A DNA stretch of 61,569 nt. Source: Octopus sinensis (taxonomy: Eukaryota). The notes beneath the pieces were generated by a model. The model did not search any database. It was not told the origin of the DNA and was given only the letters and a program-made list of their open reading frames with translations. The translations under genes were made by a program, and so were the position numbers. The stretch covers positions 1 to 61,569 of the forward strand of contig NW_021834006.1 in NCBI RefSeq assembly GCF_006345805.1, written 5' to 3'. Of this stretch, positions 3,486 through 29,094 are shown one piece after another (within the stretch, counting starts at the first letter, position 1; every line of letters begins with the position of its first letter).

Positions 3486-4124
3486 ATATTATATATATAT
3501 ATATAATATATACATATATACTGCCCATACGCGCAGAGAAGAAAAATCATGTATAGTCAGAGAAGCTAGCTGCTCTACTGTTGTGAACATCACTTCCAAA
3601 TTCAATCAGAACAATATCTATGAACAACTGCTTCAAACCCAGCAGTTCCATTACCCTAGTTATATAAATTCACATTGATATCAATAATAAATGGCCAACT
3701 TTTATGTTAGTAAATTTCTAAGTCAAGCATGGATAACCTTTTTTTTCTGTTTTTTTTTTTTTTTTTGGCAAGAAGCGGACCCGCTAGAAAAATGGCTCGT
3801 CATCATCCGGGCAGAACTACGAAAGCCATTCAAGATAAGAAATTTTCGTTAGGCGTGCCATTCAGAAAGTGTCGCGTGATAGAGTTTGACTACGAGTCAA
3901 CGTGACAATCTGAATTTTTAAGAAAAACCTAGATTTCTGTGGTAAACAAAGAAACCGGCAAACACGCACCTTATAAATATAATCTGCAAGTGGAACTGTA
4001 AGAATATACAAGAGATTTCAAAAGTTCAACATGCATCAATTATCGTTGTTGTTATACAAATTCCAATGGTCGAACTTTTGCTTTTTTATTAGAAACCATC
4101 TATCTCCGTGTGGGCGGAATTCGA

Positions 4125-9347: not shown

Positions 9348-9525
9348 GGGCATGTACGTATGTATTACGTATGTATGTGTTTATGTATATGTGTGCATAT
9401 ATCTGTGAGTGCGTGCGTGTGTGTGCGTATGTATATGTGCGTACTTGTGTGAACGGACAAACGAAAGAAAGGCACTCAACACATTTAGTACAAGTAGCAT
9501 ATATTATTATTTAAAACAGTTCAAA

Positions 9526-10130
9526 GTCGGCGATCTGGCAGAAACGTTAGCACGCCGGGCGAAATGCTTAGCGGTATTTCGTCTGCCGTTACGTTGTGAG
9601 TTCAAATTCCGCCGAGGTCGACTTTGCCTTTCGTCCTTTCGGAGTCGATAAATTAAGTACTAGTTATGCACTGGGGTCAATCTAATCGATTTAATCCATT
9701 TGTCTGTTCTTGTTTGTCCCCTCTGTATGTAGCCCCTAATGGGCAATAAAGAAATAAGAAACGTTAGCACGCCGGGCGAAATGCTTTGCGGTATTTCGTC
9801 TGCCGGGGTCGATAAATTAACTACCAGTTCTGCACTGGGGTTGATATAATCGACATCATCTGTTTGTCTGTCCTTGTTTGTCCCTCTCTGTGTTTATCCC
9901 CTTGTGGGTAGTAAAGAAATAGGTATTTCGTCTGCTCCTAATTTCTTTGTTCAAATTCCGCCCAGGTCGACTTTGCTTTTCATCCTTTCGGGGTGGATGA
10001 AATAATTACCAGCTACGCGCTGGAGTCGATGAAATAAGTACCAGCTATGCACTTGGGTCGATGTAGTCAACTAATCCCCTTCCCCAAAAAGAATTTTCAA
10101 GGTCCTGTGCCTAGAGTAAAAATGATTATT
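9526..10130 (+). mobile_element. SINE family B, three nested/tandem units
   Basis: tRNA-like head (TGGCAGAAACGTTAG..GAGTTCAAATTCC) and core GCCTTTCATCCTTTCGGGGTCGATAAATTAAGTACCAG (Meta-domain-like, from memory). Junctions at about 9757 and 9922; flanked by ATTATTTAAAACA repeats. Confidence 0.9.
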
Positions 10131-10423: not shown

Positions 10424-10694
10424 CATATATTAATACCTGTCTCACTTTTGCTCTTCCTGATTCTCTTGCGGTACAGAGGAAGGATTTGAGGGTGGGGCTC
10501 CAAATACGTAAGCTTTTCGGTGATTCTGCTCCTACCTAAAGCATCATTGTAAGAGGAGCGGCCCTATTAAAGATCTCCTAATCGGCCGGGAGCTTCGATA
10601 TTCTTCTACTAACTCACGAGACAAGGTTTCTAATTATAGCGAGGGTGGGGTTCAAGCTCTTATAGATTTCCTCACTAGGCTTCGTATATATATA

Positions 10695-11074
10695 TAAGTA
10701 GCTTGCTAACCAACCACATGGTTCCGGGTTCAGTCCCACTGCGTAGCATCTTGGGCAAGTGTCTTCTATTATAGCCCCGGGCCGACCAATGCCTTGTGAG
10801 TGGATTTGGTAGACGGAAACTGAAAGAAGCCTGTCGTATATATATATATATGTGTGTATGTGTTTGTGTGTCTGTGTTTGTCCCCCTAGCATTGCTTGAC
10901 AACCGATGTTGGTGTGTTTGTGTCCCCGTCACTTAGCAGTTCGGCAAAAAGGAGACCGAAAGAATAAGTACTGGGCTTACAAAGAATAAGTCCCGGGATC
11001 GAGTTGCTCGATTAAAGGCGGTGCTCCAGCATGGCCGCGGTCAAATGACTGAAACAAGAAAAAGAGTAAAAGAG

Positions 11075-11076
<2 letters not shown>
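10695..11076 (+). mobile_element. SINE family A, first ~20 bp missing
   Basis: Starts TAAGTAGCTTGC after a TA run and ends in AAAGAGT repeats. Confidence 0.92.
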
Positions 11077-11117
<41 letters not shown>

Positions 11118-11119
11118 TA

Positions 11120-11545
11120 GAGACAAAACCACTATTATGCAAATCAAACAAAGACTTAAGCCAATACATAAAATAATTTATTAATTAAAATTTAACAATT
11201 ATAAATAACCACTACGATCGTTTCGTGTCAGCACATCTTTGAGATATTCTTCAGGTGGTTTCAAACCTAAAATATAATCAATATTTTTAAGATATAAATA
11301 TCTATATAATCTAATAAAAATTACTTATAATAAACTCTATTATTAAATATGATATATCGAAATCGACTATAATGTTAAATATTAACTTTAATTTTAATTT
11401 ATAAGGTAGAAAATCCATATTCTAATATCCATTTTAGTCTATATCTACTTATATAGAGTATTTTAAATGACTAATATATATAAATTATCAATGAAAATAT
11501 ATATAAATATTATAATCAAGATCTAAAATAACTATATAAACGATT
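11120..11545 (-). mobile_element. Penelope-like pLTR fragment between TA tracts
   Basis: AT-rich insert within (TA)n, carrying a type-I hammerhead motif typical of Penelope-like terminal repeats. Confidence 0.55.
11207..11260 (-). ncRNA. Type-I hammerhead ribozyme motif (stem II decayed)
   Basis: AACCAC-CUGAAGA-AUAUC..GACAC-GAAA-CGAUCG-UA-GUGGUU: 6-bp stem I, intact core, palindromic stem III, GUA triplet. Confidence 0.75.
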
Positions 11546-11856
11546 ATATATATATATATATATATATATATTTAATTTATCAAGCTTCTGTTTCCTAGCA
11601 CATATTTCGCCTTAATGTACTGATAATGAAAAATATATGGCTTGTGTTAGTAATACCAGCGATTATAATTATTTTTATTTTATCGCAATTTGATTTGTTT
11701 ACATATTTCTCGATAAATTATGAGCGCCAGGCGATATACCAGAATTCCCTAGTGTTGTCGGGACGTTCGGAGTCTGCGCAGTGATATGATTAGTTAGGAA
11801 GAGTAAATCATTAGCCGCACATGCTTCTAGTGAGTTAGGATCCCAGAAAAACAGGG

Positions 11857-11928
11857 TCTCACTGAAGAATTCTCCCTGGGCAAATAAATTATCTTTATTG
11901 CTGAAAAGAAAGAAACTGCAGTCTGAGA
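11857..11928 (+). ncRNA. Type-I hammerhead ribozyme motif, unit 1
   Basis: UCUCA-CUGAAGA-[long stem II]-GAAA-CUGCAG-UC-UGAGA; predicted cut after GUC at 11923. Confidence 0.8.
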
Positions 11929-12255
11929 ATTTACCGTTTAGTAAATGTTTTTATCTTCATTTCACTTATTTATCAAGCTTCTGTATTCCTAGCACATATT
12001 TCGCCTTAATGTACTGATATATGAAAAATATATGGCCTTGTGTTAGTAATACCAGCGAGTTAAAATTATTTTTATTTTATCGCATTTGATTTGTTTACAT
12101 ATTTCTCGATAAATATGAGCCGCCAGGCGATATACCACAGAATTACCTAGTGTTGTCGGGACGGGTTCGGAGTCTGCGCATGATATGATTAGTTAGGAAG
12201 AGTAAATCATTAGACGACATGCCTTCTAGTGAGTTAGGATCCCAGAAAAACAGGG

Positions 12256-12324
12256 TCTCACTGAAGAATTCCCGGGGACAAATAAATTATTTATTGCTGA
12301 AAAGAAAGAAACTGCAGTCTGAGA
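12256..12324 (+). ncRNA. Type-I hammerhead ribozyme motif, unit 2
   Basis: Same stem I, core and stem III as unit 1; predicted cut after GUC at 12319. Confidence 0.8.
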
Positions 12325-12698
12325 ATTTACCGGTTAGTAAATGTTTTATCTTCATTTCACTTAATTTATCAAGCTTCTGTTATTCCTAGCACATATTCGC
12401 TTAATGTATGATATAATGAAATAATATATGGCTTGTGTTAGTAATACCAGCGATTATAATATTTTTATTTTATCGCAATTTGATTTGTTTATATATATAT
12501 ATATATATATATATACATACATACATACTGCGCGTGACTTTAAACAGTATTCGGTCGAGGGAGTCTGGCTCGGGAATTCCAGCGTGTTAAGGTATGTGGA
12601 ACGACCTCTATGCCATTATTGTTCCAATGTCTGGCCCCTCCGCCAAAATTTCAGACCTTGTGCCTAGAGTAGAACAGAAAATTTATATATATATAAGT

Positions 12699-19330: not shown

Positions 19331-19451
19331 CAGCATCACTCGCATGCGGTCGCAAGATATTGTAGAAATAACAGCTAAATCACAGCAAAATATTTTCCTT
19401 CGGTTATTTTTTTTTTTTCTATTTGCTTGCTTTTTCAAAAAAAAAAAAAAA

Positions 19452-19865
19452 GGCGTAGGAGTGGCTGTGTGGTAAGTAGCTTGCTAACCAACCACATGGT
19501 CCCGGGTTCAGTCCCACTGCCTGGCATCTTGGGCAAGTGTCTTCTACTATAGCCCCGGGCCGACCAATGCCTTGTGAGTGGATTTGGTAGACGGAAACTG
19601 AAAGAAGCCTGTCGTATATATGTATATATATATATGTATGTATGTATGTGTGTGTTTGTGTGTCTGCTGTGTTTGTCCCCCTAGCATTGCTTGACAACCG
19701 ATGCTGGTGTGTTTACGTCCCCGTAACTTAGCGGTTCGGCAAAAGAGACCGATAGATTAAGTACTGGGCTTACAAAGTACTGGGCTTACAAAGAATAAGT
19801 CCCGGGGTCGTGTTGCTCGACTAAAGGCGGTGCTCCAGCATGGCCGCAGTCAAAATGACTGAAAC
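19452..19865 (+). mobile_element. SINE family A, full length, with tail duplicated at 19954-20047
   Basis: GGCGTAGGAGTGG start; 182-bp period duplication of the tail plus (CAT)n. Confidence 0.93.
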
Positions 19866-21069
19866 ATCATCATCATCATCACCACCATCACCACAATCAT
19901 CATCATCATCATCTTCATCATCATCATCATCAACAACAACAACATTATCATCAACAAAGTACTGGGCTTACAAAGAATAAGTCCCGGGGTCGAGTTGCTC
20001 GACTAAAGGCGGTGCTCCAGCATGGCCGCAGTCAAAATGACTGAAACATCATCATCATCATCACCACCATCACCACCATCATCATCATCATCATCTTCAT
20101 CATCATCATCATCAACAACAACAACATTATCATCAACAACATTATCATCATCATCATCAACATCATCATCATCATCATCATCATCTTCATCATCATCATC
20201 ATCAACAACAACATTATCATCAACAACATTATCATCATCAGCATTATCATCATCAACATTATCATTATGATCATCATTTTCATCGTCGTAATCATCGTCA
20301 TCTCCATCAACATTGTCATCTCCATCACCATCATCACAATCATCATTATCATCTTCATCATCATCTACAATGACAACAGCTGCAATAACATTGATATTTA
20401 TCAAAACAAATTCCTCGAGAGCTTTATGCTCCTATCTTGATATCGTTGTATCCGATACCGGTTATATCTGTAGATTCAGCATAGTCGAATACTTAAGAGG
20501 TTTGCTTTTCAACCAAACCGTCCGGCTTTCGATCCCGGTGTATGACATCTTGTGCAGGTCCCTTTTTCTATCACTTCTATCAAGGTAACGATAAAAGGAC
20601 TTCGGTTGACAGAAGCTGTGTGAAAATGACGTTTAGGGCACGTGTGTCAGTGGAATACACAGCCACTTAGAATGCTAATCGAGCGAAAGACAGAATCGTT
20701 GAAAGCGACGTTGATCCATCTTCTCTTTACAAGTCATATACAGAGAGAAGATCCATGAATTTGCCAAAGTATATATAGATCCGGGATTATTTGATAAACA
20801 TTTTAACACGCGGTGTACCCTTAGTGGTCAGCTATCATTGAAAGAAGCAAATCCTTCTAGATTAAGTTGAGATGTGTGGAAACATTTGAAATTTACATCA
20901 AAGAACAGAGAAGCTGCTGTCCTAAGCATACACTTTTGATATTTCTTTCTACTCGTTAGAAATATCTTAAAGTTCTTAAAGTTTCTAATAGTTGGATGTC
21001 CTTCTTCTGAATCGTCAGAAAGGCATAATTTGACGCGAATATATTCAACTAAATTACACGTTACGAAAT

Positions 21070-28104: not shown

Positions 28105-28975
28105 GTACTCAACGCAAGACAAGGGAGCGAGACCCCTAACGATATTTCATAACCACCTACGTCCAACCTCACTTATAGATGATGGAATTAAACGTGCCAA
28201 CAAAATAGGCATTAAAACACTAAAGGAAACTAAACGAAGCACCACACCTCATCTCAAAATTCTACCGCATATATCAACTCACAACCCTAGAAACAAAGAG
28301 GCATACAACACTATTGCACAAAATCTACCAATACTCACTGGAATTTGGAAGCACTCCGTCGGTTACGACGACGAGGGTTCCGGTTGATCCGAATCAACGG
28401 AACAGCCTGCTCGTGAAATTAACGTGTAAGTGGCTGAGCACTCCACAGACACGTGTACCCTTAACGTAGTTCTCGGGGATATTCAGCGTGACACAGAGAG
28501 TGACAAGGCAGGCCCTTTGAAATACAGGTACAACAGAAACAGGAAGTAAGAGAAAGTTGTGGTGAAAGAGTACAGCAGGGATCACCACCATCCCCTGCCG
28601 GAGCTGCGTGGAGCTTTAGGTATTTTCGCTCAATAAACACTCACAACACCCGGTCTGGGAATCGAAACCGCGATCCTATGACCGCGAGTCCGCTGCCCTA
28701 ACCACTGGGCCATTGCGCCTCCACAATGCTCACTAGAGATTCAAAAAAAGAACAACATTCTGGAAACATATATATTCATCAAATGCAAAAAGCAATGCAA
28801 ATCGCTAAAAAATACTTCTAATAAATGCCAAGTTTTACACGACAACCGTGAAATCAATGGCTGAAAGATGTGGATGTCCAAACTGTGGAATATGCCCCAA
28901 CCGACTGGAACGCTGGGAATTCCTATTCAAACAAGGAGAGAGGTTGACAATTAAAACCAACTTCACCTGTGCATC
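28105..28975 (+). pseudogene. Penelope-like element ORF fragment (RT thumb to Cys linker, up to the GIY-YIG start), split by SINE C
   Basis: PTSLIDDGIKRA..LPHISTHNP..NLPILT|RD..KSL..RCGCPNCGICP..FTCAS: the Cys-rich linker typical of Neptune-type PLEs. Confidence 0.75.
28340..28723 (-). mobile_element. SINE family C, tail type 1
   Basis: 11-bp TSD CAAT(A/G)CTCACT (28329-28339, 28724-28734). Confidence 0.95.
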
Positions 28976-29094
28976 TTCAAGGTTTCTTCAAGTTTAAAAT
29001 GCGACATTACTGGCATAGTTTCGATAGATCTATAGTTCACAATATATAAATACATAAAAAACAGGACAAGCACACACACAGAGACAAGAACAAG

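Follow-up and report, generated by a model that had tools for sequence, protein, structure and literature searches.

A dispersed tandem hammerhead repeat with an A-A helix II closure in Octopus sinensis: a likely non-LTR retrozyme with Penelope-type insertion ends

The 61,569-nucleotide stretch of Octopus sinensis DNA analysed here (the window) contains, within a (TA)n tract, a short tandem repeat in which each full unit bears a hammerhead ribozyme motif. The locus raises the question of what kind of mobile element such a repeat represents, and of which RNA served as the template when it entered the genome. The re-entry of animal retrozymes into genomes is so far a hypothesis: a circular RNA template has been proposed, with Penelope-like elements (PLEs) named as candidates for the reinsertion (PMC7229834).

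The array and its family

Tandem Repeats Finder, run on the window, returned 11572-12496 with a period of 396 and 2.3 copies, and this, together with core starts at 11862 and 12261, confirms the original prediction of a tandem hammerhead repeat of 2.3 units lying in (TA)n; the predicted cut positions likewise lie 396 nt apart (Table 1). Unit positions 1-396 are numbered here from the predicted cut. Both full units carry TCTCA-CTGAAGA ... GAAA-CTGCAG-TC/TGAGA (the stroke marks the cut), as had been described. A tRNA search of the repeat found none, and across three units of a genomic copy stop-to-stop frames reach at most 59 codons on the forward strand and 76 on the reverse, in agreement with the claim that the repeat has neither an open reading frame (ORF) nor a tRNA head. 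The many small indels noted between the units are indeed to be seen, but they are probably consensus noise of the contig rather than true differences, given that unit 1 is 99% like other genomic copies and unit 2 is 94% like them; the garbled helix II loop of Hammerhead 2 is probably noise of the same kind. The tandem arrangement is not an assembly artefact, a possibility raised at the outset, because its head-to-tail joint recurs in contigs of three of four independent runs.

Table 1. Coordinates of the array and its parts within the window
Feature	Position	Strand	Basis or remark
(TA)n tract, left half of likely target site	11545..11571		Tandem Repeats Finder; 73 of 82 closed, mapped family 5' ends adjoin TA units
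Whole insertion, 2.3 units	11572..12491	+	5'-truncated at unit position 43; 3' end is the fixed site of the family
26-nt block over the fixed 3' end site, internal copy	11694..11719	+	Putative start of reverse transcription
CAGGG, possible pseudoknot partner	11852..11856	+	Complementarity to CCCTG (11874-11878) in the helix II internal loop
Hammerhead 1	11857..11928	+	Predicted cut after 11923
Hammerhead 1, helix I	11857-11861/11924-11928	+	
Hammerhead 1, core CUGAAGA	11862-11868	+	
Hammerhead 1, A10.1 facing A11.1	11869 and 11911	+	
Hammerhead 1, helix II	11870-11873/11907-11910	+	Plus distal stem
Hammerhead 1, GAAA	11912-11915	+	
Hammerhead 1, palindrome CUGCAG	11916-11921	+	
Cut-to-cut monomer, 396 nt	11924..12319	+	Predicted circular RNA; prediction only
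Hammerhead 2	12251..12324	+	Core 12261, GAAA 12308, predicted cut after 12319
Fixed 3' end GTTTA	12487..12491	+	Element reads on CATAT, target TATAT
(TA)n tract, right half of likely target site	12492..12527		Tandem Repeats Finder starts the tract at 12490

Directly to the left of the array, between (TA)n tracts, lies a second, unrelated hammerhead insertion (window 11118-11544, reverse strand). Its hammerhead (11208-11259, reverse strand, predicted cut after 11213) has helix I ACCAC/GTGGT, the palindrome CGATCG, a GUA site and A-C at the base of helix II, and it belongs to a larger and older family (1748 candidates, 85-94% identity) whose 3' end lies about 90 nt past the cut. Very high-copy short interspersed repeats, with huge contig depth in all the runs examined, occupy about 9500-10070 and 10680-11075 of the window.

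The repeat is a copy of a young, protein-free mobile element with a unit of 396 nt. Exact matches in the genome number 443 for a 22-nt piece from the 3' half of the ribozyme and 199 for the 3' junction sequence, and the reversed control of either gave none; the family is dispersed, without ORFs, in (TA)n, and comprises at least 199 insertions and 443 ribozyme units. A genome search at the DNA level yielded 207 matches among the best 40 of 769 candidates, mostly 93-99% identical, and array size ranges from 38 nt to about 38 units. Like metazoan non-LTR retrozymes, the family has tandem units of 150-450 bp, low GC and a hammerhead in at least two consecutive units, and it is non-coding and dispersed, without a joined ORF. 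Any target-site duplication would be masked by the (TA)n on both sides.

The hammerhead and its A-A closure

Hammerhead positions are given in the usual numbering (N7, 10.1, 11.1, H17). The motif has the core CUGANGA, GAAA and an NUH cut site in type I order, closed by helix I, with A, U or C at N7 and C or A at H17, and this arrangement, together with covarying helices, upholds the assignment to type I. The R10.1-Y11.1 pair that closes helix II is absent from the family: among 232 copies taken from 68 loci, in a search that required an intact core, 224 have A10.1 opposite A11.1, and at these two A's none of four independent runs differs. The A-A apposition is therefore not a sequencing error, as the original prediction had supposed it might be.

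Sister subfamilies, about 84% identical, have G-C at 10.1-11.1 in 22 of 40 copies and A-C in 16 of 40. Their helices carry the changes C-G to U-A (helix I) and U-A to C-G (helix II), and H17 changes from C to A, so that GUA is found besides GUC; these subfamilies link A-A stepwise to the canonical G-C, with compensatory changes in the stems. Among such related sequences, where a percentage is not a probability, 93.5% of cells are paired, against 35-47% when slid, and two pairs are changed on both sides (helix II pairs 2-4, which are out of register in the alignment, were counted by script). A tree of 29 units gives the order A-A, A-C (four further pairs), A-C (three further pairs) and G-C, two of the three steps being strongly supported; because the tree lacks a reliable root, the direction from G-C to A-A follows only from the hammerhead consensus. 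Within the A-A lineage, where variation was counted per array and without requiring the core, minor alleles amount to 0.27% in the core and helix III against 1.78% elsewhere, and recurrent variants fall on none of 20 core and helix III positions against 57 of 350 elsewhere. Conservation of core and helix III, and hence apparent selection on the core, is suggested by these counts, only suggestively because the arrays are related.

Mismatches at the base of helix II, C-A and A-C, are found in other families of the genome too. Two further hammerhead families with the same CUGCAG palindrome (L241-L270, 592 matches), one combining a C-A mismatch with a helix II of three pairs and the other built of tandem units of about 505 bp, have 3' ends about 165-175 and 215-255 nt past the cut.

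A search with hammerhead models, envisaged in the original prediction, came back empty, in that Rfam gave no hammerhead match for the repeat either at the gathering threshold or at E up to 10. The active fold has an energy of -5.9 kcal/mol, against -12.1 for the minimum-energy fold, and self-pairing of the monomer is not above that of shuffles (z -1.0; 18 of 100 shuffles fold as well). The proposal that the CUGCAG palindromes of two units could together form a dimeric helix III does find support, since the duplex between units has 8 bp and -11.1 kcal/mol, while the 2-bp helix III of the monomer adds no stability in the energy model, and this makes cleavage as a dimer plausible; self-cleavage is predicted to be weak, and likely best as a dimer. 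The CAGGG preceding helix I is complementary to CCCUG in the internal loop of helix II, four of the pairs (CAGG/CCUG) being kept in all subfamilies with no compensatory change, and the two may form a pseudoknot, a possible contact between helices I and II.

There are precedents for imperfect closure. The axolotl HHR_Amex2 has U-U at the base of helix II and is weak as a monomer but better as a dimer (PMC7229834; also PMC3088659), and PLE hammerheads have an unpaired base after position 9 (PMC4209133), which by analogy would allow an alternative register here with U-A at 10.1-11.1. A literature search, mostly without subscription papers or supplements, found no paper on this retrozyme family or on a natural A-A closure, and supplementary alignments of mussel and PLE hammerheads may already hold such mismatches.

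Could the repeat be merely an ordinary satellite, or an artefact of assembly, in which a decayed and inactive hammerhead-like motif happens to survive? The lack of an Rfam match, the A-A mismatch and the noisy units of the window contig would all suit such an origin, which is nevertheless very improbable in view of the covariation, the recurrence of the same joint and the same A-A letters in independent runs, and the dispersal of the family over many contigs with one fixed end.

Ends, target site and Penelope-like elements

The ends of the array had been described as unrelated to the cut site. On the contrary, when 40 arrays were selected for the score of their full units, irrespective of their ends, every one had the same 3' end, GTTTA followed by (TA)n, about 174 nt past the cut, with the 5' ends of these arrays spread over the unit. 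Past the fixed site, the continuation CATAT of the element is a near match to the (TA)n target, and among the first 100 3' junctions 5 keep the C of the element and 95 show the T of the target. The site lies within the longest invariant run across the subfamilies, of 26 nt (11 units, column-shuffle p 0.003).

A total of 84 ends, a few of them local duplicates, were mapped from the first 100 junctions, the 16 omitted all being multi-unit arrays examined earlier. The cut is not reached by 45 of them, 39 run through it, and none stops at positions 1-5, so that a pile-up of 5' ends at the cut itself was rejected. Stops are more frequent at unit positions 8-45 (15 stops, 4.1 per kb against about 1.2, nominal p 0.0005, in regions chosen after inspection of the data), an excess that is absent from the 40 longer arrays (7 against 4.5 expected), and a pile-up near the cut is accordingly a weak signal. 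One insertion does have its 5' end exactly at the predicted cut (L082, 1501), a single such case being within chance. Whole insertions, including their TA flanks, have been duplicated or triplicated locally at L060, L102, L119 and L128.

Inverted arms typical of PLEs were found in 3 of 120 oriented entries; the arm in L118 (3338-3610, oriented) has its outer end at unit position 338, in the ribozyme core, and not at the usual 174 site. A passenger mobilised by a PLE should have a fixed internal start, 5' truncation, a microsatellite target and inverted arms, and all four are present in the family. By analogy with the Poseidon PLE, for which target-primed reverse transcription with internal initiation has been shown in vitro and whose start sites are fixed, internal and downstream of the ribozyme (PMC11167929), the fixed 3' and ragged 5' ends would be the footprint of just such a Penelope-type process. 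A bias towards (TA)n is characteristic of PLEs, and so are inverted arms (PMC8557442).

PLEs end in the same anatomy, with a ribozyme upstream of a fixed 3' end in (TA)n. The repeat might alternatively, then, be terminal-repeat (pLTR) debris left by an autonomous element, and the 45 short ends cannot be told from truncated PLE copies. All 39 longer ends, however, carry on into non-coding unit sequence; the largest arrays have about 38 units; no ORF with reverse transcriptase and GIY-YIG domains lies between pLTRs, as it would in an autonomous PLE; and pieces of PLE ORFs lie near only 4 of the 120 oriented entries, in no case continuous with the repeat. An origin as pLTR debris is thus largely refuted and hardly credible, and the preference of the original prediction for a non-LTR retrozyme over a plain pLTR is supported.

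Intact PLE frames in the genome have 780-880 codons with a cysteine linker and a GIY-YIG domain, and these elements end in (TA)n, 60-165 nt past their own hammerhead. A search for a partner, covering one PLE family by protein and 30 GIY-YIG loci, took in 60 PLE-type loci from among thousands of candidates and found none that shares sequence with the unit; a 17/18 match to the start block, antisense in a reverse transcriptase frame (E 0.11), was taken as chance. The autonomous PLEs L240, L211-L239, L280 and L281 have in their 3' UTR a hammerhead core variant with U3-A8 instead of C3-G8. At L098 (about 3660-3690, oriented) a PLE and a copy of the family share one TA tract, the copy lying some 12 nt beyond the PLE 3' end, and the window itself includes at 28163-28994, on the forward strand, the remnant of a broken Penelope-like ORF with 43-60% identity to the L240 frame.

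Circle or uncut multimer as template

We consider it likely, at roughly two chances in three, that the repeat is a non-autonomous, non-LTR retrozyme of the metazoan kind whose hammerhead is a variant, and that its mobilisation was likely the work of a Penelope-like enzyme and likely, at least in part, proceeded from circles. This reading builds on what is observed: the family and its target, one fixed 3' end with ragged 5' ends, a ribozyme that is conserved and covaries, and homogeneous arrays. Against it stand the A-A in place of the highly conserved R10.1-Y11.1 pair, an active fold that is not the minimum-energy fold, the want of an Rfam match and a monomer that is not extra self-paired. Tandem transcripts would, as predicted, self-cleave weakly, likely best as a dimer, into 396-nt monomers, and these would likely be ligated into circles. 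The circles would then likely be copied by the reverse transcriptase of a PLE: a GIY-YIG nick in (TA)n would prime cDNA at the one internal site some 174 nt past the cut, where base pairing between the TA primer and UACAUAU would assist, and the enzyme would travel 0.1 to many times round, through the ligated cut site, before stopping at a variable point. The longest arrays would be reshaped further after insertion.

The main rival, which we regard as rather unlikely though well short of negligible, retains the same element and enzyme but has as template an uncut linear multimer, with an internal start in any unit; arrays would lengthen and homogenise by unequal crossing-over, and the ribozyme would cut rarely or serve another step. 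The fixed 3' end, the ragged 5' ends and the read-through of the cut are explained equally well in this way, and in vitro the substrate that a PLE enzyme mainly uses is uncut RNA (PMC11167929). In the same study, of PAc, ribozyme cleavage was not needed, and elsewhere cleavage failed in 8 of 9 dimers of Xenopus retrozymes (bioRxiv 10.64898/2026.07.22.740005). The original prediction had argued for rolling-circle copying from the non-integer copy number; repeated copying of one template is upheld, but the copy number alone is no proof, as an uncut linear multimer copied from an internal start would leave it non-integer too.

Variation between units offers some discrimination. Substitutions between units average 0.91 within arrays against 3.86 between them (123 units, 38 arrays, permutation p 0.0005), and in 6 of 65 arrays a private variant is present in all units (the variant of a seventh is common to the left-out L060). 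As judged from these sequences, private variants in every unit of 2-6-unit arrays would need a one-unit bottleneck, which counts against the uncut multimer, as does the apparent selection on the core. On the other side, 16 variants in 10 arrays are shared by only a subset of the units, haplotypes are mixed in some arrays, and the long arrays L032, L165, L166 and L271 share variants irregularly. A pure monomer circle does not yield partly shared variants or mixed haplotypes; these, with the irregular sharing in long arrays, point to later turnover, multimer templates or consensus noise, and the scattered shared variants of the longest arrays and the haplotype mosaics favour the uncut multimer. 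Variants with a period of three occur in L041 (units 2, 5, 8 and 11), L066 and L033. The strict period in L041 could reflect a trimer circle; the pattern in L066 fits one later three-unit duplication better, which again suits the uncut multimer, and there is no lag-three excess of indels in the arrays.

The most telling copy is a single locus, L085 (G000:C230, double junction within about 19370-19960), which came from a search aimed at the cut site (4 hits). It has 1.8 units between TA flanks and ends 3' at the usual site, yet the whole ribozyme is missing: position 322 is followed by one G and then directly by position 1, so that the join falls at the predicted cut, and this junction occurs twice. 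Because the junction is found nowhere else in the genome, even with one mismatch allowed, the assembly holds no parent array, and because positions 175-256 are present only once, L085 did not arise by duplication of a copy with one junction. The simplest reading is that a cut, shortened and ligated RNA circle was read more than once, and a unique junction at the cut, twice in one insertion and with no parent elsewhere, weighs against the uncut multimer. The only other internal deletion seen, in L162, lies elsewhere in the unit and has microhomology.

Self-closing, single-haplotype contigs of 426-428 nt are present in sequencing runs whose RNA nature is only guessed; they fit a circle, but a tandem transcript or DNA would give the same. 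In runs X1, X3 and X7 (RNA likewise guessed) single-copy flanks and the neighbouring hammerhead family have little or no cover, and X15 covers both; such holes prove nothing and were therefore not taken as evidence of expression.

A bolder version of the retrozyme reading can be offered only tentatively. The A-A hammerhead would be active in vivo and drive an expanding retrozyme, its low activity sparing monomer and trimer circles for rolling-circle reverse transcription of Penelope type, and L085 would be a ribozyme-less circle read 1.8 times, amounting to proof, at the level of DNA, of the circular-template step.

Two models of re-entry currently stand opposed, a PLE enzyme that prefers uncut RNA, with the ribozyme dispensable (PMC11167929), and a circular template (PMC7229834). 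The family offers a defined start site, a defined target and at least 199 young insertions, and its ribozyme-less double-junction copy, L085, separates the two models. The natural series of G-C, A-C and A-A at 10.1-11.1, in which all the subfamilies have spread, provides a test of the level of cleavage that a retrozyme needs.

Comparison with known systems

The family resembles the metazoan non-LTR retrozymes of coral, mussel and axolotl (PMC7229834; bioRxiv 10.64898/2026.07.22.740005), in its tandem non-coding units of 150-450 bp with 35% GC, a type I hammerhead in each unit, arrays from dimers to great length, the absence of LTR or ORF, and a genome that contains PLEs. It differs from them in the A-A at the base of a long helix II with an internal loop, in its one mapped fixed 3' end in (TA)n, and in a monomer that is not significantly self-paired; cleavage and circles are here only predicted. 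It shares with axolotl HHR_Amex2 / Rtz_353 a helix III of two pairs and a tetraloop and a mismatch at the base of helix II, the axolotl monomer cleaving to 22% in one hour and better as a dimer (PMC7229834); the mismatch there is U-U, and here A-A, within a graded G-C, A-C, A-A series of mobile subfamilies. With the pLTR hammerheads of PLEs and Poseidon PAc (PMC4209133, PMC11167929, PMC8557442) it has in common a palindromic helix III, an unpaired A after position 9, an AT-rich target, a fixed internal start downstream of the ribozyme and inverted 5' arms. Unlike PLE pLTR hammerheads it lacks G10.1-C11.1, and unlike PAc it has no ORF and one dominant start site where PAc has two; the start site here partly matches the TA target, whereas those of PAc are not homologous to the cut DNA. 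The retrozyme class is already known, and what is particular here is the combination of a fixed A-A closure with graded relatives and a ribozyme-less double junction.
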